From Dictyostelium discoideum (taxonomy: Eukaryota), in the NCBI GenBank assembly GCA_000004695.1, contig CM000154.2:4896001-4960000 (forward strand): a stretch of 64,000 bases of DNA. The letters are read 5' to 3'. The notes under the pieces were generated by a model. That model saw only the letters and a list, made by a program, of their open reading frames with translations. It was not told the DNA's origin and made no database searches. Each line of letters begins with the position of its first letter. The first letter of the stretch is position 1. Made by a program: the position numbers and the translations under genes. Positions 6,001-59,620 of this stretch are shown here, piece after piece.

Positions 6001-6125
6001 CATATTTGTTGATGCTACAGTTCTTGCTTTACTACCTTCATCCATAAGCATATCAATTTCTGAAAAACTTTTAACTGCTAATCTAAAAAAAACAATTTAT
6101 TTAATATTCATCATCATCATCATCA

Positions 6126-7912: not shown

Positions 7913-9457
7913 TTAATTTTCATCAAGTGTTAATATATATTCTAATAAAGAGATAATACCATCAATTTGCATATCTCTAAGGAAAGATTTGAAACGATCA
8001 CCATCAGTTTGGAATAAAGTTGTCATTCTTTGAATGATTACAGACTTTTGAGATGAACCTAAACTTTCATCAGTGAGTAAACTAATGAATTCATCATAGA
8101 GTGCTGTATCATTTATAACATTTGATTGATTATTTTCATCACCACTACCACCATTAACATTACTTGTATCAACATTATTATTATTATCACCATTGTTAAT
8201 TGAATGATGATGTTCATGTGAAGAATCAATTAATTCTTGTTCATGTTGATGTTGTTCATCAAATAATTCATCATCAGGTGATTGAATTATTAAATTCTCT
8301 AAAATTTCATCATCATTTGAACCTTGAACGGGTGATAATGCAGAATCTTTAAAGATTTTCAAACGATTTTCAATGAGTAGTGTTATGAAATTACAATGGG
8401 ATTGAATGTTTGTCATGTGAACTTGAAATTGTGGATTTGAAGGATTGGTATTAACTGAACGTAAGATATTTGGTGCAAAACAAACACCCAATCCAATGGG
8501 ATTCATTTTATTGATTGAAGATTTCAAAGAAACCTGCTCCAAATATTCAATGAGGTAGGATAGAACACGAACATTCTCAGTTGGTAACTTCTCTTCAACA
8601 AATACTCTAGCTTCATCGATTGTAGCGGGCACAGCTGGACTTGTGAATAGTTCCAATGGGACGAGAGGGAATTTTGACTCTCTAAGATACAATTTCAATA
8701 GACCAGCTAAATCATGAGCTGATGAATTCCCATCAACTGGTATTGCCTCTTGAACATTATTTAACATTAACCAAAGTGAACGTACAGATTCAGCATTACC
8801 ATTCACTCTAAATAATCCTTCAGTCTCTATAGCATTGGTTTTCTTTAATGCTGTAATGATCTTAAATATATTTATAAATGATAATGTTGCCGATGAAAAT
8901 GGTGCTGACAATATATGTTTCTCATAAAGTGAATCCCTACTTGGTCGTGATTTAAAGAATCTCTTTAATTTACCTGATATAATTGTTGATTTTGTAGTTT
9001 TCTTTGGTGATGGATGATGTAATATTTTATTTGGTAATGGTAATACATTGTTATTATTATTAGTTGAAGAGGATGATGATGGTGGTGATGATGATTGCGT
9101 TATTGTATTACCTGTATTTGTAGATTGTAAACTTGCACCCATTGTTGCATTTCCACTACTATAATGATTTATATTTAAATTACTATTTGATGTTGATTTA
9201 GTTAATGATCCAATACTATTTAATGATGAAGAACCTGATGAAGATCCTGATGATGATGGTGTGGTTTGATTCGCTATACCTGCTATATTACTTGCTGATG
9301 TTGATTTTGCTAAATTATTTTGTGCTGTAGTATGTTGTAATGGTGGTGATCTAGGTGGTGATTGTAATGCTGGTGGTTTATTTACATGTAAATTTGATCC
9401 ACCAACATGTTGAAATGTATTTGGTGGACTAATTGAAAGTTTACTTGGATTTGACAT
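7913..9457 (-). CDS. RhoGAP domain protein, 514 aa, single exon, Ser/Asn-rich N-terminus.
   Basis: Continuous ORF with ATG in an A-rich context. The RhoGAP core is [18 protein letters not shown]...[15 protein letters not shown]...[10 protein letters not shown]. Confidence 0.7.
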
Positions 9458-13002: not shown

Positions 13003-16000
13003 CCTTACTAAACTTAAGTATTTATATATATATATTTAGTCATTAAAAGATTTTGAATCAGTTATATCAGATATATTTTGGTTAATTAGTATAGAGGTTG
13101 AAGGAGTTGTATCGAAATCATCACAAAAAACAAATTTAATCTCATTGATTAAAGAAAGTATCTCTCAAAGTTTAGTTGCATCTGTCATTCTAAAAGAGAA
13201 ATTAGATATTGATTTACTTGAAGAATCTGGTTTAATTAAAAGTTCAAAGAAATTTACAAATAAAATTATTAGAATAAATACAAAAGAAGTGTATGTTATT
13301 ATATAATATATAATATATAAAAATCACACACACACATTCACCTACCAACCACTAATTTTATATATTTTTATATTTTTATATTATTATATTTTTATATTTT
13401 TATATTTTTATATTTTTTTTTTTTTTTAGATATACTCAAGTTAAATTTAATTTATTTAAAGAAGAATCAGAAGGTTTTTCAAAAGTTTTATCAGAATTAA
13501 ATAAAGGATCAGAATTAAATTTGAATTCAGTCGATTCAACTATTCAAAATATTAAATCATTGATTGGTTATTTCAATTTAGATCCAAATCGTGTTTTAGA
13601 TTTAGTATTGGATTCATATGAACAAAATTATCAAAATTCTGAATGTTTTCAAAAGATTATTAAATGTTTTAAAATATCTGCAATACCCCAATTATTGGGG
13701 TTTAAATATCAATATTATCAACAACAACAACATTTACAAATTCAACATATTAAACAACAATTAGAACAACAACAACAAGCTGCTGCTGCTGCTCCAACTA
13801 CTACATCTACAACTGATTCTACAACTACTACTGCAGCAACAACGACACCAACAACAACACCAGCATCAGCATCAGCATCAGCAACATCAACAACAACAGC
13901 AGCCTCATCAACATCAACAACAACAACAATTAATCCAATTGATATTATTACACCAAAATCATTATATATGGTGACAGCAAATTTATTAAAAGAAAAATTA
14001 TTTACATTGGAATCGATTTATCCACATTTAGCACCAAATGATGAAGAGATAAAGAGTCAATTTTTAGCAAGAAAAGAAGAGCTTATTTCATCATCAAAGG
14101 GTGGTACCTTGCCAACCACAGCAGATGATGATTCATCGACTAATAAGAAACCAATGTCAACTAGTGGTACTACAACAATAAGTATTGGTAGTACATCATC
14201 GGTATCATTATCATCGAATAATATTGATTTATTAGTTCAAGAGAATCAGAAATTTAATTTATTAGTATCATTATTAGATGTGAATGATACTGATTGTACA
14301 AATCAATTATTATATCATTTGACATCAAACGGTATTGATGTTGCATCAAATTCACATGTATCCACTGCATTAATCTCAAGATTGAATCAAATTATTGAAC
14401 CGATTTATAGACCAATATCATTTGCAACTTTGAAATCATCATCCTCTGGTAATTGTGGTATTGATTTACCAACTTTTATGGCATCTTCAGAGATGATCTT
14501 CTTTTTACTCTCACATCTCGGTGTTTATTTATCACATGATATTAAATTATTTACAAAATTATGTAGAATTTTAGAAAAAGTTGTACCAAAAGTAATTTCT
14601 TTAGCAAATACCTCAACTATACAAGCACAAGCCGCTGCTCAAGCCCAAGCTCAAGCACAGGCTTCACAAACACAATCTGATTCAATGGTAGTAGATACAC
14701 CACCACCACCAACAACTACCACTATGATTCAACCAAATCAATATTCAACATTTAAATTAGAAATTGAAAATTTAATATCAAATGTATTATTACCAACTTT
14801 ATCAATGATACCAAGTAATCCATGTGCATCTAATGAAATTTGGGAAGTTATTAAGCATTTCCCATATCAAAAGAGATATCAACTTTATTATGAATGGAAA
14901 GAACAATATGGAAAGATATTATCATTGATAGTATTAAAACAAGAGGTAACTGGTGATACTAAAAAGATTCTTAGACGTTTATCAAAGGATAACTATAAAC
15001 AGTATGGTAGAGCCATTGGTAAATTAAGTTATGGTCACCCAACCATTGTTTTACAAGTGATTCTATCACAAGTAGAACAATACGATTCATTGGTAATACC
15101 ATTGGTTGAATCATTGAAATTCATTTCCAATTTGTCTGGTGATGTTTTATCATTTGGTTTATTGGAGAGGTTAACCATTAAACGTGATAAACTTAAACCT
15201 GATGGTACAAATATTTCATCATGGTTTCAAGCGTTGTCATTATTCATTGGCTCATTCTATAAGAAATATCCATCCACCGAATTGGAAGGGTTACTTCAGT
15301 ATACTGTAAATCAATTAAAAGAGAATAATTCATTGGATCTAATCATTTTGAAAGAATTGTTATTAAAAATGGGTCAAACTGAAATCGTTGAAGAACCACC
15401 TGAAGCTCAAATGGAGGCACAAGCTGGTGGTGAAGTATTAAAACAAGAAACTAATACAATCGTTATTACAACTGGTGGTGGTGGTGGTGGTAGTGGTACT
15501 CCTGGTGGTGCTCCTGGTAGTGGTGGTGGTGGTGGTGGTGCATTAAGTAATAGTAGTAGTATTGCAAATGCTCCTAGAAATACAAAGAAATCAATTAATA
15601 GATTAAAAGATACTTTAATCAATAGTAAATTAGCATTCTCATTCTTTGTTTTAATTGCAAAACAACGTTATGATATCATTCATAATACAAGTGAACAATC
15701 ACAACATATTAAATTAATTAGTGATCTCTATGATAAATGTCAAGAAACTTTAATTCAGTATACTGAATTCCTTACAAATCATGCAACATCTGAAAAGTAT
15801 TCAGAATTCTTTAAAGAGGATTTCAATACATTAATCACAACCTATTGCCTAGAGCCAGAAGCTGCTTTTCATATTTATAGACCAATATTTTCAAATGGTG
15901 CTGCCAATAATAGACAATTAATTGTAAATAACTGTAAACAAATTTATCCTGATGAAGTTTGGAAATCAATGAATCCTGAACTATATTCTGTATTTTGGTC

Positions 16001-18885
16001 ATATTCATTATATGACATTTATGTACCAAAAGCATTATATGAAAGTGAAATTGCAAAATTAAAGAATCAAATTACAACAATTGATTATGGTTTAGTTGGT
16101 ACTACTACTACTACCACTGCTACTGCTAGTGGTAGTGGTGGAGGTAATTCTAAAGATATTAATAAAAAGAAAAAAGATAAAGAAAGAATTCAATCAACAA
16201 TTGAAAAACTTCAAAAAGAATTGGCAATTCAAACTTTAAATCATCAAAAAGTTTTAGAACATATTCAATCATTAAAAGATAAATTCTTTGAATTTTCATT
16301 AAATTCACCTGTAAATCAAACAATTAATTCAACAACAACAACAACAACAACTTCAACAACAACTTCAACAACAACAACAACAACAACCCCTACAACAAAA
16401 GATATGTTACAAAATGGTAAAAAAGAAGGTATTATTAAATTTTTACAATATTGTATATTTCCAAGAGCAACATTTACACCAGCAGATGCAATTTATTCAG
16501 CTAAATTTGTTCAAATTTTACATAGTATTAGTACACCAAATTTCTCAACATTAAATTATTTATTAGATCTTTGTCAATCGATTACTTTTATGATTTATTC
16601 AAGTACAGAGAATGAAGCAAATAGATTTGGTAGATTTTTAAATGAATCATTAAGTATCCTAACCAAATGGAAATCATCAGAATCACTATACGATAAGGAA
16701 TGTGCAAAACTTTTAAAAACTTTAGCATTAAGTTATGATAATTTCGTTAGATTCTTTCATCGTTGTCATAAAACAATCTCTGAATCATTTTCAAATTGTT
16801 TAGAGAATGATGAATATATGGTCATTAGAAATGCGCTATTGGCATTAACTAAATTGGTTCATGTTTTCCCAGCTCATAAATCTTCTTATGAAAATATTGA
16901 AAATTTAGTATTAAAGTTAAAGAAAAGAGATGAATTGAAAACATTGGCAATTCGTTATCATTCATTATTAGAAAAAGAAAAACCAAGAATGATTGATGAT
17001 ATCATTAAACCAACAAAACCAAAAGCTAATCTAAAAGATTCAAAATCGCCAACTACAACTTCTTCAACTCAAACTACAACAACAACTTCTTCAAAAGATA
17101 GTGGCACTACTACTACAACTTCTTCATCAACTCCAACTACAACTTCTTCATCAAATAGAGATTCAATTAAAGATGCTGATATGATTGATATTAATGATGA
17201 AAATAATAATAATAATAACAAATCAAAAGAAAAAGAAAAGGAAAGAGAACGTGAAAAAGAAAGAGAAAAAGAAAAGGAAAGAGAAAAGGAAAGAGAAAGA
17301 GAACGTGAAAAAGAAAGAGAAAAAGAAAAAGAAAAGGAAAGAGAACGTGAAAGAGAGAGAGAACGTGAGAGAGAAAAAGAAAGAGATAGAGAACGTGAAA
17401 AAGAACGTGAACGTGAAAGAGAACGTGAACGTGAGAGAGAACGTGAACGTGAAAGAGAAAAAGAAAAAGAAAAAGAAAAGGAAAGAGAACGTGAACGTGA
17501 GAGAGAAAGAGAACGTGAGCGTGAACGTGAAAGAGAGCGTGAACGTGAACGTGAAAAAGAAAAAGAAAGAGATAGAGAACAACGTGAAAAAGAAAGAGAA
17601 AGAGAACAACGTGAAAAAGAAAGAGATAGAAGTGATCGTAATTCCGATAAAAATAATAATAATGATGGTGGTGGTAGTGGTAGTTCAAGAAGTGATAAAT
17701 CCTCTTCAAAAGATAGTGGTAGTAAAAAAGATCAACAAACTCCACGTAAAGAAATTGAAAAATCAGAATCAAGAGAGAATATTCGTGATTCACGTTCAAA
17801 TGATAACAATCAATCATTATCATCCTCTCGTGAAATTAGAGAAAGAGATAAAGAATTAAAAGAAAAAGAGCAACGTGAAAAGGAACAACGTGATAAAGAT
17901 CGTGAAAATAGGGAAAGAGATAATAGAGATGTTAGAGATTCACGTAATGATCAAAGAGGTAATCAAGAAAGAGATGGTGGTGAACCTCAACAACGTAGAC
18001 AACAACAACAACAGCAACAAGAAAGAGATAGAAACGATATTAGGAATCAAGATAATAACAATAATGACTCTCAACAACAACAACAACAACAACAACGTAG
18101 ACAACAAGACAATGATAGAAGAGATAGAGGTAATCAAGATAATATAAATAATAGAGATAATAATAGCAACAATAGAAATGATAATAGAGAAAGACAACCT
18201 AATCAAGATAATAGAGATAACAACAATAATAATAGTAATAGAAATGAAAGAAATGATAGAAATGATAGTAGTAGAGAAAGACAGGATAATAGAAATGAAA
18301 GAAATGATAGTAGAGAAAGACAAGACACTAGAGATAATCGTAAAGATCAACAAAGAGATAATGATAAATCAAATCAAGTGCAAAGGAATCGTGATTCTCA
18401 ACCATCGTCACGTAATTCTTCACCACCCCATAACCAACCACAACAACATCAATCACAGCAACAACAACCACAACAACTTTCTCCACCAATTCCACAAACC
18501 GATGAAGAGAAATTTAAAAATGCAAAGAAAAAGAGAGAAGAGAAATTTGAAAGTAAACAAAAAAATAATAATGAAATCGATCAAGAATCACCTCCAAATA
18601 ATAATAATAATAGTAATCAATCATCAAATTCAAATCCATCTTCAAATCAAAGTAGTAGATCAAATAGTAAGGATAGAAGTGGTGGTCAACAAACTCCTCG
18701 TGATAATCAAGAAAGACAAAGTGGTGAAAATAATAATAATAACAACAATAATAATAATAACACTAGAGATGACCATGATAATAAAGATAAATTAAAAGAA
18801 ATGAGAGATAATATTCGTAAAAAACAAGAAAGTAATAATAATCAAAATAATAATCAAAATAATAATAATAATAATAATAATAATC

Positions 18886-18942
<57 letters not shown>

Positions 18943-19295
18943 CACCACAAGAAAATAGAGAGGATAAAAAGAGAGATAGAGAAAAAGAAGAAGAAAAGGA
19001 AGATCAAAAGAAAAGAAAAACTCAAATTAATCGTAATAGAGTTGGACCATCACCACCTCCACAAAATCTTCACCCTTACCAACCTCCTCAACATCTTCAA
19101 CATCCTCAACATCCTCAACATCCTCATCATCCTATGTCACACCACCATAATCAACACCACAACCAACAACAACAGCAACAACAACAACATCATGGAGGAT
19201 TTAGAGGTGGTAGAAATGACAGAAATGATAGAGATGTTAGAGATGTTAGAGATGAAAGAGATAACAGGAATGATAGATATAATAGAAGAAATTAA
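12746..19295 (+). CDS. thoc2: THO complex subunit 2 (THOC2) orthologue with a greatly expanded low-complexity C-terminus (RE/KE repeats, poly-N, poly-Q, His-rich). Exons about 12746..12886 (uncertain), 13040..13290, 13430..19295.
   Basis: Exon 2 (ILKEKLDIDLLEESGLIKSSKKFTNKIIRINTKEV) and exon 3 ([64 protein letters not shown]) align with human THOC2 residues LKERLDPETLESLGLIKQ...KFNLLREENEGYAKLI...[28 protein letters not shown]. The exon 2 donor is GTATGT and the exon 3 acceptor is tttttttag. Exon 1 (MVNKNNYKNFEKL...) is assigned with a weak in-phase GTTAAT donor and has low confidence. The main ORF runs uninterrupted to the TAA at 19293..19295. Confidence 0.75.
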
Positions 19296-22029: not shown

Positions 22030-25000
22030 TTAATTTAATTGTTTTAATTTGCTTTGTATTTGTTCTTTAAACTTTTTGGAATTTTTATTTTTGATAAAAA
22101 TGTATACAACCGAGATAACAATAATTGCCACAAAACACACTGAACCAATTACAATTCCTGCGATTTTACTGGCTGATAATCCATTTGATTTCGAACAAAT
22201 TGAATTCTCTCCTGATGCTGATTCGCTATCTAATAAAACAAAGAAATCTGGATCAATAATTACTTTATTTTTAAAATGTGGAATTTTAATTCCAATAAAA
22301 GTTTGAGTAGAGTGAGATGTTGATTCAGCAATTGTATTTTGGAATTCATCTAACAATGTATTTTCAATACCAACAATATTACCATCTACTACAGCCCTTT
22401 TAATGAATCTACCATACATTGAATGATCTTGAACTTGAAGTTTAATGTAGTTAGAGTTGTCACCATTTGTAGTATCACCAAATTGTTTTAATGAACAAAA
22501 ATCATCACTTTCATCTGTTGATAATATCGAAGCAAACATTACCAATTCGAGATTATTTAAAGCTGAAGAGAATACATAATTTTCAATTTCAATGGTAAAT
22601 TTGACTGATGATGGATTCATTTGGAGCTCTTGACCTGCAAATGTTATATTTTTGCTTGAATTAAACCATTGAATAATTGTTGTTATATTTGTGGTTTTAA
22701 TATCGTTACCATTTTGAGAAACTATTGATGTATTGTATCTACCAGTTGTTAAATCTATATCTTCAAATACCCATTTATCAAAAGGGAATGTTTTAATAAC
22801 TTCACCTTTAAAATCTAATTCTCTAATAGAAACTAAAGTTACTAATGATTTAAATAAAAATTCTGTTGAGTTTGTTTCTTGTCCACCACCACCGCCTGTA
22901 ATAGGAATTTCAACTGTTGGTTGTGAAGTATTTGTTTGTGGTGTTGGGATAATAATAATTTTTGAAGTACAATCAACTCCGTACCAAGGAGAGTAACAAA
23001 TGCATCCAAACCCACTTTGACAATAACCTTTGTTTTTTCCTCCACATTCTGGATTTCCTAAACATTTTTGAGGTGGATTTGTTGGTAATGGTGATATAGT
23101 TGGTTGTAAAGTTGGTTGTAAAGTTGGTTCTGGTGTATATGTTGGACCAGAATAATTAAAATTATAAACTATTGGATTAATTAAAAATTCATTTGATTTA
23201 ATGTTAATTTGATTGGAATCAAGTAATAATAATTTAAAAGGAATATCGATTAATGGTACCTCTGTTAATTTAATGAAACTTGAATAGGTTTTAGTTATTG
23301 TTTTTAAATTTATGTCACTACCATTCGAAATATAAATAATCGCTGTATCAACTGTACGAAAGTTTTTACCAAAAATAAATAGAGTTGAATCTTTGTTTGT
23401 AAATTCTGAAACTGATGTTATTATTGGTATATTAAATGAAAAATCTGTAGAAACAAACCAATCTTGTTGTAATGGATTTAAATCCTTAATGTCTTTTGAA
23501 GAGAATCCACTATAGGTTCCTCTATTATTAATAAAGCCATAAACAGATACTAAGAAACCATCAGGATATCCAAAACCTACTGGTACTTCTATTGTACACG
23601 AAAAGGTTATTGTAGTTGAATTAGTAATTGTTGGTGTTGCTCGGCATTGTTCCATTGCAAGTCGTTGTGGAACTAAATAAACTATTGGATTCTGTCCTTG
23701 TTTAAAACCGCTTTCTAAATCTTGTGCTTGAAAAGTGAATGTTATTGATCTATCTAAAGAGCCTACATCCATTGAAGATCTCGAGGTTTTAAAGGAAATT
23801 AAATTTGGAGGAGAACTATCCAATTCACCAGTACAATAATAATTAATACTAAAGGGTGATGAATCATTAATGAAATGAATAAATGGATTACGAGTTGACT
23901 CAAACGATTGAGTGTTTTCATAATACTCTAAAGTGAAATATTTAACATATGTATTATTGTTACCATATGTATCGAATAAACTTGCTTGAGTTATTAAATA
24001 ATCTTGAGTGATACAATTACTACTCCCAATACCAAACTCCAATGGTATTATAATTTTGTAATCACCAATAATTTTATCACCACTTCCTTCTATTAAATTT
24101 GACATGTTTATTGTAATGTTGTAGAATGAAGAATCTAAAAGTCCTTTAACAATTAAAAAGCCATCTCTGAAACCGTTTATTTCATCTTGAATTGTAAATA
24201 ACCATCCATTATGTTGTTTTATGATTTTGGTTACAATTGGTCCATAAATATCAACCTTAATTGAAGTTGCTCTTAATTGATATTCATTGGATAAATAATT
24301 ACTATCAATTAAGTTTGTATTATCAAGTACCAATGCATAACTTATATTTCCTGGTAGTGTATTTGCAGGTACTTTAAAGTTTACTCTAAATCTATTGGTT
24401 GTTTGGTCCCATACTGCAAATTTATAATTTGGATTTAAAATAGTAAATATACTATTTTCAAATCTAATATCGTTTAAAGATTTTTCATCAGTTAAATAAA
24501 AACCAATTGACAAGTCTTTATAGTCTTCAATATTATTAAATGTAAAAAACATTATATTATCAACTGATTGGTCAGTTATATCAATGTCATTATATAAAAA
24601 TGATACCTGAACTAAATCATTTAAATAATTATAATCTATTAAAATAATATTAAAAAAATTATTAGTAATGAATTATAGTAGTTTTAAAAGTGTATTATTA
24701 ATACAATTTTCTTACTTTTTAAATTAATACTTGGATATGTAAGTTTTGAAATGTTATTACCAATCTGGTAGAGATAATCACCAAATCCATATGTAACTGG
24801 GTAATCTAGGTTGCCTTCTATTTTTATTGAATTTTCGGTGATAGCATTGCTTATTTCAACAAGCTCAAATTTTATTTCTGTAAGATACTCCCAAATACCA
24901 TCAGAAGCGGTACCAGAAACAAGCATACCATTATCATGAACAGTATTCTTTGAGTTCATAATTTTTAAATACGAAACTGAAGATAAATTTGGTGAGCCGA

Positions 25001-25873
25001 TACTTTTAATTTCAATTCTGTTTAAAAACTTTAGATTTCCGATATAACTAGATGTAAAAGATTGGATTTCAAATCTTCCAACATCGGAATTAGGTAATGT
25101 AATAAATGGTTCGAAATCTCCCCTCATTTTAGTAATACATCTAGGCATACATATAGTAAGAATATTCAAAGGTGAAATGGATATTAAATTAATTGGTAAA
25201 GAGAATCCAAATTTGACCATTTCATTATTTCCTCCAATAAAGCCAAATGGAAAATCGGTAATAGTAAATGTTTGTTTATATTCTAATTGAAATGGATTAA
25301 AATCAAATTTAAATTCTGTTCCATTATACTCAGATGTAACCATTGCCATACCAACAGTTGAATTATCTTTGATAGAAGTTAACTTTGAGTTTGGTGTTTG
25401 TAATCTTGGGCTTTCTATTTTTTTAATTTGAAATATTTATATATATATATCAATTTTAATATTAATATATTTCAATTTTTTTTTTAAATATTTTAAGATT
25501 AAAAAATTAAATCAAATTTACCTGTTATATTAACAAAAAAATTGGAATATTCTTTAAATGATGGTTGTGTTTCATTTTGTCCATACAATGAAAAGTTCAT
25601 ACCATTAGCCATAATTGGTAAACAAGTTGCAATAAATGTTAAATTATTTGGTTTACCTAAAATTGGTCTTGGTGTTGAATAATATCCTAAAGTACCCAAT
25701 CTATACACCGGATTTAGAAGATTTGATTTGATTCTAAATGATAAAAGTGAACCAAATACATTTGAATATAAAACAAAATTTCCTGAAGGTGGATAAAGTT
25801 TTAAATCATAAATTTCATTCGTTACAATATTTCCTCCTTTTAAATTAAAATTAAAAATTATTATTATTATTAT

Positions 25874-27511: not shown

Positions 27512-30500
27512 TTAATTTAATTGTTTTAATTTGCTTTGTATTTGTTGTTTAAACTTTTTGGATTTTTCATTTTTGATAAAAACATAAACAATAGAAATAA
27601 TAACAACTGCCACAAAACACACTGAACCAATTACAATTCCTGCAATTTTACTGGCTGATAATTCATTTGATTTTGAACAAATTGAATTCTCTCCTGATGC
27701 TGATTCGCTATCTAATAAAACAAAGAAATCTGGATCAATAATCACTTTATTTTTAAAATGTGGAATTTTAATTCCAATAAAAGTTTGAGTAGAGTGAGAT
27801 GTTGATTCAGCAATTGTATTTTGGAATTCATCTAACAATGTATTTTCAATACCAACAATATTGTCATCGACTACAGCCCTTTTAATGAATCTACCATACA
27901 TTGAATGATCTTGAACTTGAAGTTTAATGTAGTTAGAGTTGTCACCATTTGTAGTATCACCAAATTGTTTTAATGAACAAAAATCATCACTTTCATCTGT
28001 TGATAATATCGAAGCAAACATTACCAATTCTAGATTATTTAAAGCAGAGGAGAATACATAATTTTCAATTTCAATGGTAAATTTGACTGATGATGGATTC
28101 ATTTGGAGCTCTTGACCTGCAAATGTTATATTTTTGCTTGAATTAAACCATTGAATAATTGTTGTTATATTTGTGGTTTTAATGTCGTTACCATTTTGAG
28201 AAACTATTGATGTATTGTATCTACCAGTTGTTAAATCAATTTCATCAAATACCCATTTATCAAAAGGGAATGTTTTAATAACTTCACCTTTAAAACCTAA
28301 TTCTCTTATTGAAACTAAAGTTACCAATGATTTAAATAAAAATTCTGTTGAGTTTGTTTCTTGTCCACCACCACCACCTGGTATTGGAATTTCAACTGTT
28401 GGTCCTGAAGTATTTGTTTGTGGTGTTGGGATAATAATAATTTTTGAAGTACAATCAATTCCATACCAAGGAGAGTAACAAATGCATCCAAACCCACTTT
28501 GACAATAACCTTTGTTTTTTCCTCCACATTCTGGATTTCCTAAACATTTTTGAGGTGGATTTGTTGGTAATGGTGATATAGTTGGTTGTAAAGTTGGTTG
28601 TAAAGTTGGTTCTGGTGTATATGTTGGACCAGAATAATTAAAATTATAAACTATTGGATTAATTAAAAATTCATTTGATTTAATGTTAATTTGATTGGAA
28701 TCAAGTAATAATAATTTAAAAGGAATATCGATTAATGGTACCTCTGTTAATTTAATGAAACTTGAATAGGTTTTAGTTATTGTTTTTAAATTTATGTCAC
28801 TACCATTCGAAATATAAATAATCGCTGTATCAACTGTACGAAAGTTTTTACCAAAAATAAATAGAGTTGAATCTTTGTTTGTAAATTCTGAAACTGATGT
28901 TATTATTGGTATATTAAATGAAAAATCTGTAGAAACAAACCAATCTTGTTGTAATGGATTTAAATCCTTAATGTCTTTTGAAGAGAATCCACTATAGGTT
29001 CCTCTATTATTAATAAAGCCATAAACAGATATTAAGAAACCTTCAGGATATCCAAAACCTACTGGTACTTCTATTGTGCATGAAAAGGTTATAGTGGTCG
29101 TATTGGTAATTGTTGGTGTTGCTTGACATTGTTCCATTGCAAGTCGTTGTGGAACTAAATAAACTATTGGATTCTGTCCTTGTTTAAAACCGCTTTCTAA
29201 ATCTTGTGCTTGAAAAGTGAATGTTATTGATCTATCTAAAGAGCCTACATCCATTGAAGATCTCGAAGTTTTAAAGAATATTAAATTTGGAGGAGAACTA
29301 TCCAATTCGCCATTACAATAATAATTAAATATTAAGGGTGATGAATCATTAATGAAATGAATAAATGGATTACTAGTTGAATCAAAGAATTGAGAGTCCT
29401 CATAAAATTCTTGAACGAAATGTTTAACATATGTATTATTGTTACCATATGTATCGAATAAACTTGCTTGAGTTATTAAATAATCTTGAGTGATACAATT
29501 ACTAATTCCAATACCAAACTCCAATGGTATTATAATTTTGTAATCACCAATAATTTTATCACCACTTCCTTCTATTAAATTTGACATGCTTATTGTAATG
29601 TTGTAGAATGAAGAATCTAAAAGTCCTTTAACAATTAAAAAGCCATCTCTGAAACCGTTCACTTCATCTTGGATTGTATATACCCAACCATTCTGTTGTT
29701 TTATGATTTTGGTTACAATTGGTCCATAAATATCAACCTTAATTGAAGTTGCTCTTAATTGATATTCATTGGATAAATAATTACTATCAATTAAGTTTGT
29801 ATTATCAAGTACCAATGCATAACTTATATTTCCTGGTAGTGTATTTGCAGGTACTTTAAAGTTTACTCTAAATCTATTGGTTGTTTGGTCCCATACTGCA
29901 AATTTATAATTTGGATTTAAAATAGTAAATATACTATTTTCAAATCTAATATCTTTTAAAGATTTTTCATCAGTTAAATAAAAACCAATTGACAAATCTT
30001 TATAGTCTTCAATATTATTAAATGTAAAAAACATTATATTATCAACTGATTGGTCAGTGATATCAATGTCATTATATAAAAATGATACCTGAACTAAATC
30101 ATTTAAATAATTATAATCTATTAAAATAATATTAAAAAAATTATTAGAAATGAATTACAGTGGTTTTTTATGTGTAAAATTAATAGAACTTTCTTACTTT
30201 TTAAATTAATACTTGGATATGTAAGTTTTGAAAATTCATTACCAATTTGATAGACCGTGTCACCAAATTCATATGTACTTCGAGTATCTTTGGTGCCTAC
30301 AATTTTTATTGTATTTTTTATGCTAGCACTACTTAATTCAACAAAATCAAATTTTATTTCTGTAACAAACTCCCAAAAACCTTCAGAAGCGGTACCAGAA
30401 ACAAGCATACCATTATCCAAAACAATATACTTTGTTTCTTTAATTTCTAAAAATGAAACTGAAGATAAATTTGGTGAAACTGTACTTTTAATTCCAATTC

Positions 30501-31362
30501 GGTTTAAAAACTTTAGATTCCCGATATAAATTGATGTAAAATATTGGATTTCAAGTTTTCCAACATCGGTGTCGGGTAATATAATAAATGGTTCGAAATC
30601 CCCTCTCATTTTATGAGTACATCTTGGCATACATAAGTTTAAGATATTCAAAGGTGAAATTGACATTAAATCAGCTGGTAAAGAGAATCCAAATTTGACC
30701 ATTTCATTATTTCCTCCAATAAAGCCAAATGGAAAATCGGTAATAGTAAATGTTTGTTTATATTCTAATTGAAATGGATTAAAATCAAATTTAAATTCTG
30801 TTCCATTATACTCAGATGTAACCATTGCCATACCAACAGTTGAATTATCTTTGATAGAAGTTAACTTTGAGTTTGGTGTTTGTAATCTTGGGCTTTCTAT
30901 TTTTTTAATTTGAAATATTTACATATATATATATCAATTTTAATATTAATATATTTCGATTTTTTTTTTAAATATTTTAAGATTAAAAAAATTAAATCAA
31001 ATTTACCTGTTATATTAACAAAAAAATTGAAAAATTCTTTAAATGATGGTTGTGTTTCATTTTGTCCATATAATGAAAAGTCCATACCATTAGCCTTAAT
31101 TGGTAAACAGGTTGCAATAAATGTTAAATTATTTGGTTTACCTAAAATTGGTCTTGGTGTTGAATAATATCCTAAAGTACCCAACCTAAATACTGGATTT
31201 TGAAGATTTGATTTGATTCTAAACGATAAAAGTGAACTAAGTATATTTGAATATAAAACAAATTGTCCTAAAGGTGGATAAAGTTTTAAATCATAAATTT
31301 CATTCGTTACAATATTTCCTCCTTTTAAATTAAAATTAAAAATTTGTTAATAAATTATTAAT

Positions 31363-32743: not shown

Positions 32744-34510
32744 TTAATTTATATAACCTTCAGTTCTTAAATGATTTAAAATTAAAAGGATTGCATCTTT
32801 TACTGAGGTATGAGTTGTATCAATTCTTAATTCTGGATTTTCTGGAGTTTCATATGGATCATCGATACCAGTGAAACCTTTGAGTTGACCACTTCTAACT
32901 TTAGCGTATAAACCTTTACGATCTCTTTTTTCACAAGTTTCAATTGGAGTTGAGATATGAATTTCAATGAAACCACCATTTGGAGTGATTAAATCACGAG
33001 CAAATTTACGAGCACCAGCATAAGGTGCGATTGGGGCACAAATTGCAATACCACCAGCTTTTGAAATTTCAGAGGCAACGAAACCAATACGTTTGATATT
33101 GAGATCACGATGTTCTTTACTGAAACCCAATTCACTTGAGAGGAATGTACGAACGACATCACCATCTAAAAGAGTTATTGAACGACTACCATCTTCAAGG
33201 AGTGCTTCATTTAATGCATTTGCGATTGTACTTTTACCACTACCACTGAAACCTGTAAAGAAAACTGTAAAACCTTGTTTTGAACGTGGTGGACATGAAT
33301 CCCTTAAAATTTTAACCACCTTTTCATAGGTGAACCAATTTGGAATTTCACCACCAGTACGAAGGAGATGACGTAATTTTGTGCCAGAGATATTTGCAGT
33401 TTCTAAACCCTCTGGAACTTCATCGACTGGATAATATTTATCGTGTGCTGGTACGTAAACCATCATTTGGAATGGAAGGATTTTAATTGATAAACGATTG
33501 GCTAATTTAAGTGCCAATTCTTGAGCTTCGTATGGTTGATAAAATAGGTTGCCTTGTTTGTCCTCACCTGGACCTGCATGATCTCTACCAACGATGAAAT
33601 GATTACAACCGAAATTCTTTCTAATAATTGCGTGCCAAACTGCCTCTCTTGGTCCACCCATTCTCATGGCCAATGGCAAGAGTGAGAGTGTTGCCAATCC
33701 CTCTGGATAGGAGTCCATGATCTCTTTATAACATTTAACACGTGTGTGGTAATCGATATCGCCTGGTTTGGTCATGCCAACTACTGGTTGAATTAAAAGG
33801 TGACAATTTGCATTCAACTCGGCTGCTCTAACTGTAAGTTCTCTGTGTGCTCTATGCATTGGATTACGAGTTTGGAAGGCGATAACGTTCTCCCAACCTT
33901 TGGTTTTAAATAATTCTCTCACTTGAATTGGTGTACGACGGAGACCGTTGTAATCGTAGTGTACTGGTAATTGGGCACCCTCAAGCTTGCCGCTTACATA
34001 GTACTCTTTGGTATTGAAAATTGTGGAAACACCTGGATGGTATGGGTCAATGGATCCCATTGTCTTTTTGGCTTCGTTCTCTTTATTTGGTGTATAATAA
34101 TTTGAAACGGTTAAAACTGCTATTAAATTTCCCTCTTCATCACGTAATGCCATTTGTTTACTATCGGTTGCTAAAACTGTATCCAAGCATTCCTTGCTTA
34201 TATCCAATACTATTGGCATTGGGAATAATAATCCCTCATCTTTATCACCATCGATTGTCATGGTTTCAACAACATTATTATAGATGGTTTCGTCCATAAA
34301 TGTACTCAATGGTGAGAAACCACCATTCATCAATAATTCTATATCACATAATTGCTTCTTTGTTAATAATAAACTTGGTAATGAAATTGATCTTTGTTTT
34401 AATTCTACTAATTCTTCTCCTTCTAAAATTAAATTTATTAATTCTCCGCCATGTGGGATTGAACCATAAAGTTTGGAATTATTTGTTGTTAAAATATCTG
34501 GTGATACCAT
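32744..34510 (-). CDS. Bifunctional sulfate adenylyltransferase (ATP sulfurylase) with a C-terminal APS kinase domain, fungal Met3-like domain order. 588 aa, single exon.
   Basis: ATP-sulfurylase motifs QTRNPMHRAHRELT and GRDHAG, and a PUA-like N-terminus. The C-terminal segment GFTVFFTGFSGSGKSTIANAL...DGDVVR...KRIGFVASEISKAGGIAICAPIAPY is APS-kinase-like with an intact P-loop. Confidence 0.85.
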   Translation of the reverse strand: MVSPDILTTNNSKLYGSIPHGGELINLILEGEELVELKQRSISLPSLLLTKKQLCDIELLMNGGFSPLSTFMDETIYNNVVETMTIDGDKDEGLLFPMPIVLDISKECLDTVLATDSKQMALRDEEGNLIAVLTVSNYYTPNKENEAKKTMGSIDPYHPGVSTIFNTKEYYVSGKLEGAQLPVHYDYNGLRRTPIQVRELFKTKGWENVIAFQTRNPMHRAHRELTVRAAELNANCHLLIQPVVGMTKPGDIDYHTRVKCYKEIMDSYPEGLATLSLLPLAMRMGGPREAVWHAIIRKNFGCNHFIVGRDHAGPGEDKQGNLFYQPYEAQELALKLANRLSIKILPFQMMVYVPAHDKYYPVDEVPEGLETANISGTKLRHLLRTGGEIPNWFTYEKVVKILRDSCPPRSKQGFTVFFTGFSGSGKSTIANALNEALLEDGSRSITLLDGDVVRTFLSSELGFSKEHRDLNIKRIGFVASEISKAGGIAICAPIAPYAGARKFARDLITPNGGFIEIHISTPIETCEKRDRKGLYAKVRSGQLKGFTGIDDPYETPENPELRIDTTHTSVKDAILLILNHLRTEGYIN

Positions 34511-37495: not shown

Positions 37496-39712
37496 CACTG
37501 AAATAGAATTACTGGTACCAATTGGAGTGATAGTACAAGGGGTATTGGTACTTGATGGTGAAAATTCAAATTTAAAATTATTTGGAGTTTGAGTCTGCTC
37601 TAAATAAACTCTATTTATATTACCACTAAGTTGGACTATTTTTTCAGTAGCTAAAGAAGAGAAATAATTATTCTTCAATACTTGTGAAACAGTGATAACA
37701 AGATTTGGATTGGAGGAAATTATCATAACAGGTTCTGAGTGTATGTCTTTTTGACTAGGAGTAACAATAAGATTTATATTTGAAATGATATTAAATTTAG
37801 CCGATGATTCATATGGACATTCGGGTGACTGTAGACATATGTGTACTTTATCTTTTACACTTGGGAAAACATCAATTGAAATGTCCTCAGTTTTATAGCC
37901 TACTGTATCAGGTTGGACAAGGAGTGGAGCATTCGTGGTTTTATAGTTTGATTGTTTTGGTTCAATAACTCTTTTTGGAAGTGGGTTTAGTGTTTGTGGT
38001 ATTAAAATTTCAAATCCCATTGGATTATCTAGATTTTGAGCGGCAAATTGATTCATTATCCAAGAAAAGTCTATTTCAGTTCCTATCGTTGATTGTGGGA
38101 CACCAAGTTTTGCAATATTATAGGTTATATCTTTTCTTATCCATGTTACATGTCTTTCCATATAATCAACTAAATATCCAATACCATCCATGCAATAAGC
38201 TCCTCCTCCTCTTGATTCTAATTATGAAGTATATCGTATCAAATGGTATATAATAATTAATTAGTTTTAATTATAGTAAAAATAATAATAAAAATAAAAT
38301 ATAATTAAAATAAAAATAAAAATAAAAATAAAAATAATTAATTATGATTAAAATAATATTATTTTTATCTTACCTTGACCTCTTTGCCAATTTAGATCAC
38401 CTAAACAAAAGGTTTTTTGTTGACCATCATCACTGGTACCATACATTAACTTTGAATGATCTTTTGAGGAACTTCTTTGTGGATTTACATCTATGAATGG
38501 ATAATTGAGTCTTAATGCTATTGAGAAACTTGTACCAGAAACTACATTATTAGCAAATCCCTTTATTGTATTTGATGTCATTGTTTGAGACATCCATTTC
38601 GAAATATTTTTGTAATATTTACCAATATATTGCCATAATAATTCAATGTTATTCATTTGAGCAAAGTTTTTTGAAGATGGTTCGGCAATAATTCCTTTCT
38701 TTTGTGGGAGTGAAGTTTGAACAAAATATTCACCAAAGGAATATTTATTTACATGATAATAATGAGAAGATTTGAAGTTTGCATCTGATGAGAATTCAAA
38801 ATTTTCAGAAATATGACCAGCCTGGAAAATAAATAAAAAAAAAGTTGTAAAATTTGAGTGAGTATTTATTATCACAATAAAATAAACAATAATAAAAATA
38901 ATTATACATACCAATTTAGCCCATTGTAAAATTTTAATTTTTCTAGAGAGAGTTGAACCTACAAAAAAATTTTTCTTAATAATTTCATCGATTTCTGAAA
39001 AATATTTCTTTTTCTTTAAATCATCATCTGTTACTGTATCTAATTTTGTTTCGTCTACATCATTGATACCTGTTAGACTTGTTGCGAGTAATTTGCTTAA
39101 CATTTTACCTTTGTCGAATTTATGGTTATTTATTGCTTTAATTGCAGGGTTAGTATATATCAAATATTTTGGAATAATATCTAATTCATTTGGTTTCAAT
39201 GTAATACAAATTGAATGTTGTAAATAACTATCTTCAGAACTATGTAAAAAGAAATCATCAATTTCTTGAGGTGTGTAGGGGATACTATGAATTACGTGAA
39301 TACCACCATGTTCATTCCAAATAAAAAACCCTTTTGCATGTGCACTCCCTTTACCGTCATCAAAAGCATTATTGTAAGAAATACTTGAAAATATATTACC
39401 GTTGGCTTGACCGAATGTTTGAGTAATTGGAGATACCTGGTCTTTAACTCTCATATTATATTTACTTAATTCAAGTATTTTTTCATTTTTGTTCTTTAAA
39501 TTGCTATCTGTATAAAAAGATGAACCACTACCTTTATCTCCAGGTTTATTAAAATGTTCATAAATCCACCAATCAACATAATTTTCAGCGGGTTTTAAGC
39601 TTGGATTTGATGATTTTGCATAAATATCATTGTATAAACATCTCGGAACTTGTTGACATTTAATTATTGAAAATAAAATAAATAATAAAAATATTTTAAT
39701 CAAATTTTTCAT
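37146..39712 (-). CDS. DNase II (acid deoxyribonuclease) family protein with a roughly 330-aa C-terminal extension of unknown function. 4 exons: complement(38912..39712, 38374..38821, 37361..38217, 37146..37277), about 745 aa.
   Basis: Signal peptide MKNLIKIFLLFILFSIIKCQQ. The first HxK motif is GSAHAKGFFIW and the second is KDHSKLMYG. Then ...CLGDLNWQRGQG|ESRGGGAYC spans a gtaaga intron, and this junction mirrors the human DNASE2 C-terminus ([20 protein letters not shown]). The 90-nt in-frame intron 38822..38911 (gtatgt...ccag) is read through in the ORF track as the segment VCIIIFIIVYF. Two further GTAAGT/...TAG introns complete the model. Stop codon at 37146..37148. Confidence 0.6.
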
Positions 39713-54351: not shown

Positions 54352-55380
54352 TTATATTAAAATATTAAAATATTTATTTAAAAATTGTTTAGTATTATAG
54401 TTATTTTCTAAATTTACATAATTATATGCAGATGGTGTTGTTGATAATAATGAAGTGAAATCTTTTAATTGAATTTCTCTATCTTTTTTACTATTATTAA
54501 AATATATAATATAAAAACAATCATTTTCAAATAAATAATAACCTTTATCAAATAATTTAAATAAACTTATTGGTGGTATTGATAAAGATGATGATGATGA
54601 TGATGAAGAAGTTGATTGAATTGATGATGATAAATATTTACAATTTAAAATTGAAATTAATTGGTCATTTGATAAAATTAAATTTCTATTAAAATGGCAA
54701 ATCGCTTGAAAAATCGATTGATTATTTTGTTTTTGTTCATAAATAAATGAACCATCAATTAATCTTCTAACTCTATACTCTTTTTGATTGAAATTTACAA
54801 TTGAATTTGAATTTGAATTTGAATTTGTATTATTTATTAATAATTCAATTGGTTGAAAACAAGAATTTACATTTAACCCTACATCAACGAAATAATCATT
54901 TCCATCTTTCCATTGAATAATATTTGAAAAGTGTATAATACCATTTGAATTTAAAACTGTTTTAACTAATTGAACTTTAATACCAATTTCATTTAAAAAT
55001 AACCCAAAAACTATATTTAAATGTGACGAATTACCACCATTACCATCAATTATAATTTTTTTAATTATTTCTTTAATACTTGAAAAACTTTCACCATCAT
55101 TATTATAATTATTATTTATATAATTATCATCATCAATTTGATTTTGATTTTGTTGTTCTTGTTGTTGTTCTTGTTGATTTTGTTGATTATTATAATTATT
55201 ATCAAATTTATTTATTAATGGTATTTGTTGACAAAATAATAATTGGAGTTTTGAAATTTCACTTAATGATCTAATTTTAAAATGTTGAAATTCATTTTCA
55301 TTACAATTTACCATCACTCTTTTTAAAAATTGAATTTTAAAATTAAAACTAAATTTATTTTTTAAAGAACTGTAAAACAT
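54352..55380 (-). CDS. Arylamine N-acetyltransferase (NAT)-like protein, 342 aa. The catalytic Cys position appears to be replaced by Ser, so it may be a pseudo-enzyme. Has a poly-Q/N insert.
   Basis: IIDGNGGNSSHLNIVFGLFLNEIGIKVQLV parallels the NAT consensus [22 protein letters not shown]. This is weak similarity read by eye. Confidence 0.4.
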   Translation of the reverse strand: MFYSSLKNKFSFNFKIQFLKRVMVNCNENEFQHFKIRSLSEISKLQLLFCQQIPLINKFDNNYNNQQNQQEQQQEQQNQNQIDDDNYINNNYNNDGESFSSIKEIIKKIIIDGNGGNSSHLNIVFGLFLNEIGIKVQLVKTVLNSNGIIHFSNIIQWKDGNDYFVDVGLNVNSCFQPIELLINNTNSNSNSNSIVNFNQKEYRVRRLIDGSFIYEQKQNNQSIFQAICHFNRNLILSNDQLISILNCKYLSSSIQSTSSSSSSSSLSIPPISLFKLFDKGYYLFENDCFYIIYFNNSKKDREIQLKDFTSLLSTTPSAYNYVNLENNYNTKQFLNKYFNILI

Positions 55381-58951: not shown

Positions 58952-59620
58952 TTATAATTTCTTATAATTTCCAAAATTAATTTCATTTTCTAATTCTTTT
59001 AAATCTTCAGTATAATTTATCCAAACATAGCCTAATAAATCAGAAGGTAAATCATAATTTTGAGATTTACCATTATATGGAACCGATAAATAAATTACAT
59101 TTGATCTACCGAATTTTCCAATTAAATAACCAAATTCGAAAACTACATTTAATCTTGGATATGCAATTTCAACATAATCAGAATTTGAATCTTTTTTAGT
59201 AAAAGCTTTATTATCGGGTGACATTATTACAATACCAAATTTACAATTTGAAATTTCTTTCTCTAATTTTTCAATTATTGTTTGACCATTATTTGGTTTT
59301 TCAAATAATAAAATTGGTTCAAATCCCATTTCAAATAAAAATTTTGAAACTTTTTCTCTTACAATATTATTATGACCATGAACAATGAAAACTTTTATTC
59401 TTTCATTATTCCCATTACTAATACTATTATTATTATAATTATTATTATTATTATTATTAATAACACTACTATTTGTGTTTACTGTTGATACACTATTATT
59501 ATTATTATTATTATTATTTGGTATTATGTCAATTGATTTTATAATATTACTACTATTATTTAATGATATAAAAAAAATTAAAAAATAAAATAAAACTAAT
59601 AGTCTAAAAATATACTTCAT
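58952..59620 (-). CDS. Protein of 222 aa with a signal peptide or N-terminal anchor, then a bacterial-type TIR-like nucleotide-binding domain (COG4271 / PF10137 'TIR-like', Cap12-like).
   Basis: N-terminus MKYIFRLLVLFYFLIFFISL is hydrophobic, followed by a poly-N linker. The domain RIKVFIVHGHNNIVREKVSKFLFEMGFEPILLFEKPNNGQTIIEKLEKEISNCKFGIVIMSPDNKAF...YPRLNVVFEFGYLIGKFGRSNVIYL...LPSDLLGYVWINY matches the prokaryotic consensus (KVFIVHGHD...LGLEPIIL.EQPN.G.TIIEK.E......FAIVLLTPDD......RARQNVVFELGYF.GKLGR..V..L) nearly motif-for-motif. Confidence 0.7.
   Translation of the reverse strand: MKYIFRLLVLFYFLIFFISLNNSSNIIKSIDIIPNNNNNNNNSVSTVNTNSSVINNNNNNNYNNNSISNGNNERIKVFIVHGHNNIVREKVSKFLFEMGFEPILLFEKPNNGQTIIEKLEKEISNCKFGIVIMSPDNKAFTKKDSNSDYVEIAYPRLNVVFEFGYLIGKFGRSNVIYLSVPYNGKSQNYDLPSDLLGYVWINYTEDLKELENEINFGNYKKL

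Follow-up and report, generated by a model that had tools for sequence, protein, structure and literature searches.

TirC of Dictyostelium discoideum, a probable horizontally acquired bacterial-type TIR NAD+ hydrolase with a predicted endoplasmic reticulum-targeting N-terminus

The stretch of DNA analysed here, referred to as the window, is a segment of 64,000 nucleotides of Dictyostelium discoideum contig CM000154.2, and its subject of interest is tirC, a gene on the minus strand near one end of the window. Our interpretation, to which we give a probability of about 0.9, is that tirC is a dictyostelid gene carrying a horizontally acquired bacterial CAP12/Pycsar-type TIR domain that hydrolyses nicotinamide adenine dinucleotide (NAD+), and that this NAD+ hydrolase (NADase) is kept harmless by an N-terminus that targets it to the endoplasmic reticulum (ER). 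The gene and its story were already known from the 2008 paper in which it was named (Sillo et al., PMC2443395) and from a preprint of May 2026 that deals with exactly tirC (Culbertson et al., bioRxiv, PMC13142454). An initial annotation, made from the DNA sequence alone, had proposed a TIR-like domain of the prokaryotic-defence type joined to a hydrophobic N-terminus at this position, a reading that is real and correct.

The tirC gene and its TIR domain

The tirC open reading frame (ORF) begins with ATG and comprises 222 codons and a stop in a single exon (Table 1), as had been stated in the initial annotation. The exact 222-residue sequence has been deposited publicly as the D. discoideum protein KAM9948518.1, which shares a 90% cluster with AX4 DDB_G0291083 (UniProt Q54F65, "Protein tirC"); a literature search under the identifier DDB_G0291083 found nothing. 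The window protein is 100% identical to AX4 TirC over the aligned part, and its residue numbering is that of the preprint (E162). In contrast to the 222 residues of the window ORF, the AX4/UniProt model has 201 residues and is without the hydrophobic helix due to a mis-called intron. This "intron" is an in-frame GT...AG segment of 63 nucleotides encoding exactly the helix, and its removal from the ORF yields the 201-residue AX4 protein starting with MNSNIIKS. The 5' GT of the segment is missing in D. cf. discoideum, D. firmibasis, and D. dimigraforme, and polymerase chain reaction (PCR) on complementary DNA (cDNA) confirmed a single-exon tirC, with no spliced product (PMC13142454). Therefore, the 222-residue ORF is the real product. 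Since the GT is specific to D. discoideum, the AX4 intron is most likely an annotation artefact, caused by the AT-rich codons for Phe, Leu, and Ile. The label "cytosolic" given to TirC by Sillo et al. can be attributed to the AX4 model, since this model drops the helix segment.

Two ways of producing a helix-less protein were considered. Regulated splicing as an activation switch was rejected, because of the absence of the GT in the three sister species and of a spliced product in the preprint. Alternative initiation is unlikely, because no in-frame Met is found between the helix and the TIR domain and the next one, M98, is inside the domain. The variants of TirC in D. discoideum isolates, among them P0001 and P0122, have 218, 219, and 222 residues, with differences in the Asn tracts. 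The poly-Asn linker evolves fast between isolates and the TIR domain is nearly identical; substitutions between isolates were also seen in the helix (LLV to LSI and SS to GG).

Table 1. Features of tirC, with positions in the window
Feature	Position	Strand	Basis or remark
tirC coding sequence	58952..59620	-	ORF list; exact match to KAM9948518.1
N-terminal hydrophobic element, residues 1-25	59546..59620	-	AlphaFold2 (AF2) helix 2-25; candidate ER-targeting signal peptide or signal anchor
AX4-annotated "intron", in-frame 63-nucleotide GT...AG segment	59553..59615	-	Encodes exactly the hydrophobic helix
Apolar core L7-L20	59561-59602	-	MKYIFR before, NNSSN after
Asn-rich disordered linker, residues 26-75	59396..59545	-	Predicted local distance difference test score (pLDDT) < 50 at residues 27-62; length varies between strains
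CAP12/Pycsar-type TIR domain PF10137, residues 76-204	59009..59395	-	Pfam, PADLOC, AF2, Foldseek
Beta-hairpin insertion after strand C, residues 137-154	59159..59212	-	AF2 strands 137-142 and 149-154
Catalytic E162 codon, NVVFEFG motif, start of helix 157-170	59135..59137	-	Plus-strand ttc = GAA
C-terminal end of TIR fold, residues 205-222, including helix 208-216	58955..59008	-	AF2; conserved in amoeba orthologues

The C-terminal part of TirC matches the Pfam family PF10137 (CAP12/Pycsar effector TIR domain) well beyond chance, with an E-value of 4.6e-37 and 127.1 bits against a cut-off of 24.7 bits, and the alignment covers profile positions 1-118 of 119. A C-terminal domain of this prokaryotic-defence type (PF10137/COG4271) had been predicted to start at residue 85; the domain is there, but its start is at residue 75/76. 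In comparison with canonical eukaryotic TIR receptors, TirC remains below threshold for PF01582 (18.2 bits vs a 21.3-bit cut-off) and has no receptor or adaptor architecture. The Pfam scan found no domain besides TIR and none of the leucine-rich repeat (LRR), NB-ARC, or death domains, which agrees with the earlier statement that canonical eukaryotic TIR partners are lacking.

Four motifs had been quoted in support of the domain, and all of them, VFIVHGH (residues 77-83), EPILLFEKPNNGQTIIEK (101-118), FGIVIMSPD (128-136), and RLNVVFEFGYLIGKFGRSNV (156-175), are present. In an alignment of 52 sequences, made with bacterial relatives, they fall on columns that vary little or not at all. These columns include F78, V80, H81, G82, L105, I116, E117, K118, E120, R156, N158, V159, E162, R172, D194, and G197. 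The conserved catalytic Glu that had been anticipated is E162 of the NVVFEFG sequence, which follows the pattern R-x-N-V-x-x-E-x-G; it is invariant in this alignment as well as in a second alignment of 45 sequences, and its motif aligns with PRDNVVFEFG in chain 7un8_A of Cap12/TIR-STING.

The AF2 model, which was built from the 52 sequences, has a mean pLDDT of 81, with nearly all of the TIR domain above 90. It shows a flavodoxin-like fold with the order bA-aA-bB-aB-bC-hairpin-aC-bD. When this model was compared with the PDB by Foldseek, the filament structures of TIR-STING (9lmq and 7un8) ranked at the top with E-values of 1.6e-7 to 1.2e-6, followed by SPARTA TIR-APAZ and other bacterial TIRs. 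Comparison of the fold was needed for the link to TIR-STING, because a search of solved structures by sequence only gave marginal matches (E-values of about 0.1-0.2). The hairpin insertion after strand C, which is typical of TIRs of the TIR-STING type, is also found in the AF2 model of a homologue from Polysphondylium violaceum, and it was noted as common to TirC and Sphingobacterium faecium (Sf) TIR-STING in the preprint (PMC13142454).

Among known systems, the best structural matches to TirC are therefore provided by Cap12/TIR-STING (SfSTING, PDB 7un8; 9lmq), a CBASS effector that has the same TIR subtype, the hairpin, and the NVVFEFG sequence. Filament-forming NADase behaviour is a further common property according to the preprint, which used TIR-STING as its comparator, with about 22% identity between the TIR domains (PMC13142454). 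In contrast to Cap12, TirC lacks both a STING domain and cyclic-dinucleotide sensing, and there is no CD-NTase gene beside it.

SARM1 is a functional analogue of TirC, being a TIR NADase that carries out cell death and is restrained by its N-terminal region; its structural match is weak (Foldseek E-value of about 3e-3) and it is not homologous at the family level.

NADase activity, the N-terminal element, and membrane orientation

The experiments with TirC are those of the preprint, and they established its NADase activity, the dependence of this activity on E162, oligomerisation, colocalisation with the ER in yeast, tolerance of the full-length protein, and lethality of the truncated one. TirC hydrolyses NAD+ to nicotinamide and ADP-ribose, runs as very large (void-volume) complexes, assembles into puncta and filaments, and is toxic to both E. 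coli and yeast cells; under standard conditions, both activity and toxicity are abolished by the E162A substitution (PMC13142454). In amoebae, full-length TirC with a C-terminal tag and a free N-terminus was found in puncta and was tolerated for 42 h, whereas TirC without the N-terminal helix was cytosolic and lethal, with rounding and lysis of the cells and rescue by nicotinamide (PMC13142454). In yeast, full-length TirC colocalised with an ER marker, and this protein was toxic in an E162- and nicotinamide-dependent manner (PMC13142454). The construct used in E. coli was without the helix (PMC13142454) and therefore is uninformative on topology. Knock-outs of tirC formed smaller plaques on Klebsiella and took up less Legionella, and the gene was up-regulated in hypoxia (PMC13142454). 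An earlier study had found tirC over-expressed in cells that were phagocytosing or growing on bacteria (Sillo et al. 2008, PMC2443395). Taken together, the published data point to an intracellular death effector that depletes NAD+.

The initial annotation had suggested several checks. Profile and structure comparisons gave the PF10137 match and a TIR fold with the conserved Glu, as described above, and three of the other questions had been answered in the literature: TirC does cleave NAD+ (PMC13142454), its gene is up-regulated on bacteria (PMC2443395), and a phylogeny supports horizontal transfer (PMC13142454).

The present analysis contributes the family, the fold, the invariant Glu, the bacterial nearest relatives, the gene order, and the conservation of the N-terminus. 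The C-terminal 147 residues are a TIR domain of the bacterial CAP12/Pycsar type and, in the mechanism that we propose, this domain entered a dictyostelid ancestor by horizontal transfer from bacteria. Self-assembly of this domain into filaments would lead to E162-dependent hydrolysis of NAD+ to nicotinamide and ADP-ribose, and the depletion of NAD+ would result in cell death, as is the case for bacterial abortive-infection effectors. The amoeba-specific N-terminus, which consists of a basic residue or two, an apolar core of 13-20 residues, and the Asn-rich linker, would serve as an ER-targeting signal, so that the protein would reside, harmless, at or in endomembrane compartments. Loss of the N-terminus or of its barrier would set free cytosolic TIR filaments, which would deplete NAD+ and cause lysis.

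Several points weigh against this interpretation. The source of the biochemistry is a preprint without peer review. Furthermore, E162A was active again under molecular crowding, and thus catalysis is not fully explained by one residue (PMC13142454). The defects of the knock-out strains were mild and varied from clone to clone, leaving the physiological role unproven (PMC13142454). Our own evidence for horizontal transfer, which is presented below, consists of similarity ranking and taxonomic distribution and not of a rooted tree. We infer the natural trigger and the biological role, which could be immune-like cell death or regulation of phagocytosis, as well as the side of the membrane on which the TIR domain lies.

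The hydrophobic signal or anchor and the poly-Asn linker that had been described at the N-terminus of TirC are borne out by the apolar run in MKYIFRLLVLFYFLIFFISL, by the AF2 helix, and by the disorder predicted for the linker (Table 1). The hydrophobic element is kept in D. discoideum, D. cf. discoideum, D. firmibasis, and, after correction of the start, D. dimigraforme, with apolar cores of 14, 14, 13, and 20 residues in the four species. Basic residues precede the core (K2 and R6 in D. discoideum), and in three of the four species the flank that follows it carries no net charge. The exception is D. dimigraforme, whose features are ambiguous, with the longest core and a net positive C-terminal flank. 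The annotated start of its protein ACTA71_000067 (189 residues; position 8001 of locus L063) is 17 codons late, and the in-frame ATG upstream (7950-8000) adds MKTILLFFIYYLIFFIS, so that the restored N-terminus reads MKTILLFFIYYLIFFISMIYIV. With respect to cleavage, D. firmibasis has a canonical S-L-S|N small-residue motif, while the c-region ISLNNSS of D. discoideum is not a textbook cleavage site. The D. discoideum protein has glycosylation sequons in its linker and, as N201-Y-T, in the TIR domain.

The homologue of P. violaceum (CYY_003659, or P0124; locus L065, 8001-9083) is encoded by a continuous ORF of 360 codons. It starts with a hydrophobic core of 9-10 residues followed by I-N-A|L. 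Before its TIR domain, which keeps NVVFEFG, there is a region rich in Cys, with 10 Cys in 135 residues (7.4% vs 0.3-2.7% in the ORFs of the window). This region also contains 10 N-x-S/T sequons, as opposed to 5.4 +/- 1.9 expected, and 10 were reached in 103 of 5000 shuffles. No hydrophobic segment lies between the Cys-rich region and the TIR domain, and thus the layout resembles that of a secretory-pathway protein. The Cys-rich region gave no Pfam match and no homologue, and its pLDDT in the AF2 model was below 50. The gene is not at the syntenic tirC locus and may be a lineage-specific paralogue. A short hydrophobic tail, ILKILYIYGKMIYIF, is present at the C-terminus of the protein.

On which side of the membrane the TIR domain would be found depends on how the N-terminal element is read. 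According to the classical positive-inside rule, basic residues before the core together with a neutral C-terminal flank lead to an N-in/C-out orientation. Therefore, a cleaved signal peptide or an N-in/C-out anchor would be favoured by the N-terminal basic residues and the neutral flank, with the TIR domain luminal or outside the cell.

The working model of the preprint puts forward, as a hypothesis, that the helix acts as a transmembrane tether, and it assumes a cytoplasmic TIR domain (PMC13142454). Assembly would be blocked by the tether or by an amoeba factor, and proteolytic release would lead to NAD+ depletion and death. We consider the chances of this model to be about even. The toxicity of the full-length protein at the yeast ER, with its dependence on E162 and nicotinamide, means that at least some of the TIR domain reaches cytosolic NAD+ in yeast. 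Furthermore, AF2 predicts a single long helix over residues 2-25, and the 20-residue core and positive flank of D. dimigraforme are compatible with a cytosolic C-terminus. On the other hand, the words "signal peptide", "lumen", and "secreted" are absent from the text of the preprint (PMC13142454), in which the orientation was assumed, and the short cores of 13-14 residues, the basic residues on the N-side, and the neutral flank in three of the four species predict the opposite, N-in/C-out orientation. In addition, the model leaves unexplained why the same tether fails to protect yeast, and an alternative truncated isoform is unlikely in view of the position of M98 and the lack of a conserved splice site.

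Alternatively, TirC could be a luminal or secreted NADase, a serious alternative that we regard as possible, though at less than even odds. It extends the suggestion of the initial annotation that the protein is possibly released or exposed so as to act on ingested bacteria. The N-terminus would then be a cleavable signal peptide or a type II anchor, and the TIR domain would lie outside the cell or in the lumen of secretory or endolysosomal compartments. The protein would be tolerated due to its separation from cytosolic NAD+. Its target might be the contents of phagosomes or NAD+ outside the cell, or it might serve as a booby trap that enters the cytosol once a pathogen breaches the compartment. 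This is suggested by the basic residues before a short apolar core that lies at the very start of the protein and is followed by a neutral flank, by the cleavage motif of D. firmibasis, and by the P. violaceum protein, with its signal-peptide-like start, its region rich in Cys and sequons, and the lack of a later hydrophobic segment before the TIR domain. A luminal placement would also directly explain why full-length TirC with a free N-terminus is punctate and tolerated in amoebae and why truncated TirC is lethal, and it is consistent with the up-regulation of tirC on bacteria and with the plaque and Legionella uptake phenotypes of the knock-outs; the E. coli result has no bearing on it. In contrast, the NADase-dependent toxicity of the full-length protein in yeast would require cytosolic exposure or leaky translocation under strong overexpression. 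It is also generally expected that there is little NAD+ in the lumen. The c-region of D. discoideum, the ambiguity of D. dimigraforme, and the off-locus position of the P. violaceum gene, whose Cys-rich region has neither homologues nor a confident model, are further points against a luminal location. A precedent for it is CD38, an NADase with a type II membrane topology, in which the catalytic domain is on the outer or luminal side; it has a different fold and is not homologous to TirC at the family level. On the basis of these N-terminal features, we tentatively suggest, at odds of roughly one in three, that the TirC lineage may consist of secretory-pathway proteins with the NADase domain in the endomembrane or phagolysosomal lumen or outside the cell.

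Bacterial relatives and origin of the TIR domain

The similarity searches covered 5.8 billion proteins, among which the sole eukaryotic relatives of TirC were those of the four Dictyostelium species and the one protein of P. violaceum. All other named relatives are bacterial, with 31-47% identity. Of the 9,691 cluster representatives that an exhaustive profile search gave at E <= 1e-3, no more than three reached E <= 1e-30, namely two amoeba clusters and one bacterial-type protein. No further amoeba homologues besides Dictyostelium and P. violaceum were among the best 150 representatives; TirB and TirD have evidently diverged too far to be placed among these. The P. violaceum protein scored 132 bits, compared with 120 bits for the best bacterial proteins. 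The nearest named bacterial proteins (43-47% identity) are from Saprospiraceae, Chitinophagaceae, Flavobacteriales, Chryseobacterium, and further bacteria, most of which live in soil and water. In the preprint, TirB, TirC, and TirD branch within the bacterial and archaeal CAP12/Pycsar TIRs, and, from a survey of 81 Amoebozoa, the horizontal transfer was assigned to the base of Dictyostelia, with prokaryotic sequences surrounding the family (PMC13142454).

The genomic setting of tirC is that of an ordinary amoeba gene. Its GC content (19.1%, with 7% GC at third codon positions) is similar to that of its neighbours in a window with 24.7% GC. The neighbours are eukaryotic and encode a RhoGEF, a PQ-loop protein, an arylamine N-acetyltransferase-like protein, a flavin adenine dinucleotide (FAD) monooxygenase, and a TIG-domain protein. 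The order of RhoGEF, tirC, PQ-loop, N-acetyltransferase-like, and FAD monooxygenase genes is kept in D. firmibasis, D. dimigraforme, and D. cf. discoideum. With its host base composition, its poly-Asn insertion, and its fixed chromosomal position, tirC is a resident amoeba gene. No TIR paralogues were found within the window. It is very unlikely that the gene stems from contamination or from ancient vertical retention.

The initial annotation had left the origin between horizontal acquisition and ancient retention. The former is upheld by the bacterial relatives and the published phylogeny, and the latter does not fit a gene restricted to dictyostelids. That an ancient eukaryotic TIR was simply retained could be argued from the age and wide distribution of TIR domains and from the fully host-like composition of the gene, yet this has a very small probability. 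The canonical eukaryotic TIR profile PF01582 stays under its cut-off, dictyostelids are the only eukaryotes with relatives among billions of proteins, the P. violaceum protein scores barely above the best bacterial proteins, and the survey of Amoebozoa dates the origin to the base of Dictyostelia, among prokaryotic sequences. Still less probable are an adaptor TIR without enzymatic activity, of the kind used in animal Toll signalling, despite the signalling role speculated on by Sillo et al. (PMC2443395) and weak matches to Pfam TIR and TIR_2, since the measured NADase activity depends on E162 (PMC13142454) and the catalytic and surrounding residues are invariant, and bacterial contamination of the assembly, which is ruled out by the 19% GC, the poly-Asn tracts, the eukaryotic neighbours, and the gene order common to four species.

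With regard to the bacterial source family, the PADLOC models gave a clear ranking for the TIR domain of TirC, with 139 bits for PDC-S35, 60 bits for the CBASS TIR effector, and 48 bits for PycTIR. Five PDC-S35 models matched with E-values of 1e-33 to 4e-41 (best 3.9e-41), the best of all PADLOC families. The NCBIfam Cap12 equivalog reached 36.5 bits vs a cut-off of 450 bits, with the TIR part alone aligned. CBASS and Pycsar TIR effectors follow PDC-S35 in this ranking, and the label "Thoeris-like" used in the initial annotation is not supported, as no ThsB model was among the PADLOC matches to TirC at E <= 1. PycTIR, the Pycsar effector, likewise has a C-terminal PF10137 TIR that depletes NAD+ (PADLOC E = 2e-13). 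However, only its TIR part aligns (model positions 139-267 of 288), and TirC has neither its cyclic-nucleotide-binding domain nor the adjacent pyrimidine cyclase partner, and no bacterial neighbour at all. Judged by these profile scores, the closest bacterial family is the PADLOC candidate PDC-S35 rather than TIR-STING, a point that is absent from the preprint.

PDC-S35 is a candidate single-gene anti-phage system, and no paper mentioning it was found in the literature search. At three loci that were checked (L001, L003, and L004), the nearest relatives of TirC are full-length PDC-S35 members, with E-values of 1e-74 to 1e-85. PDC-S35 proteins have about 265-310 residues and, like TirC, a C-terminal PF10137 TIR. 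In contrast to TirC, they carry a soluble helical N-domain of roughly 100-165 residues without a transmembrane segment, in the place of which TirC has the amoeba-specific hydrophobic element and the poly-Asn linker. A possible remnant of this N-domain was considered, since TirC has IIKSIDIIP where about 20 of 116 relatives have a sequence such as LIEKLELIP, 15-23 residues before the TIR domain. This was rejected, because the score of a hidden Markov model of the pre-TIR region was not above that of composition-preserving shuffles (44, 922, 1177, and 1189 of 2,000 shuffles per species equalled or exceeded the real score). Only the TIR domain thus appears detectably bacterial, in agreement with the preprint.

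The TIR genes of some bacterial relatives adjoin defence or mobility genes (L011 2537-5632, L031 3905-5626, L018 6576-11495, and L056 3725-5551), which include a type III methyltransferase whose gene shares 4 bp with the TIR gene, a type ISP/IIG restriction-modification enzyme of 1,639 residues, and a phage-type integrase. This fits a location in defence islands.

Among 60 bacterial PDC-S35 loci, 7 have a conserved ORF for a soluble protein of about 130 residues, which either overlaps the TIR stop codon or starts within a few bases of it (L003 6438-6830, L009 6438-6830, L012 6413-6826, L015 6439-6831, L024 6440-6841, L042 6432-6818, and L059 6437-6829). Where the lineage is named, these loci belong to Bacteroidota (Flavobacteriales, Chitinophaga, Taibaiella, Saprospiraceae, and Haliscomenobacter). 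The ORF gave no Pfam or PADLOC match. It may encode a partner or regulator, which would make this subclade of PDC-S35 a two-gene system. In addition, P0309, a bacterial or metagenomic protein of 305 residues, was the sole non-amoeba protein with N-terminal transmembrane helices and this type of TIR among the best 150 representatives; a membrane-associated version of the PF10137 TIR therefore exists in prokaryotes but is rare.

Other genes of the window and implications of TirC

The rest of the window contains ordinary eukaryotic genes, such as those for a kinesin with a PH domain (37-6051), a RhoGAP (7913-9457), THO complex subunit 2 (13521-19295), a bifunctional ATP-sulfurylase/APS kinase (32744-34510), and a DNase II homologue (38348-39712). 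There is no bacterial-type operon near tirC. The arylamine N-acetyltransferase-like ORF two genes downstream of tirC (54352-55380, minus strand) matches PF00797 weakly (E = 4.9e-6). Its GC content of 18.5% is lower than that of any other gene nearby, and its position is kept in the sister species. Two minus-strand ORFs at 22030-24552 and 27512-30034 both encode 840 residues with DUF7035, DUF7034, DUF7949, and ComC supersandwich domains, and upstream of each there is an ORF of about 220-236 residues (24684-25349 and 30121-30831). The arrangement suggests that a segment of about 5.5 kb was duplicated in tandem.

If our interpretation of tirC holds, the gene would be a rare, recent, and experimentally tractable case in which a eukaryote has captured a bacterial anti-phage cell-suicide enzyme and made it safe to carry. 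It would show the passage of innate-immunity parts from bacteria to eukaryotes, a case that was already made in the 2026 preprint. What is added here is the question of the orientation of the TIR domain with respect to the membrane and the pointer to PDC-S35. For the bacterial family, the biochemistry of TirC predicts that PDC-S35 proteins may be filament-forming NADase defence effectors. For the amoeba, a luminal location, if true, would mean that a lethal abortive-infection enzyme has been tamed by its placement across a membrane, from where it might act on phagosome contents or extracellular NAD+, or trigger death when a pathogen damages the compartment.

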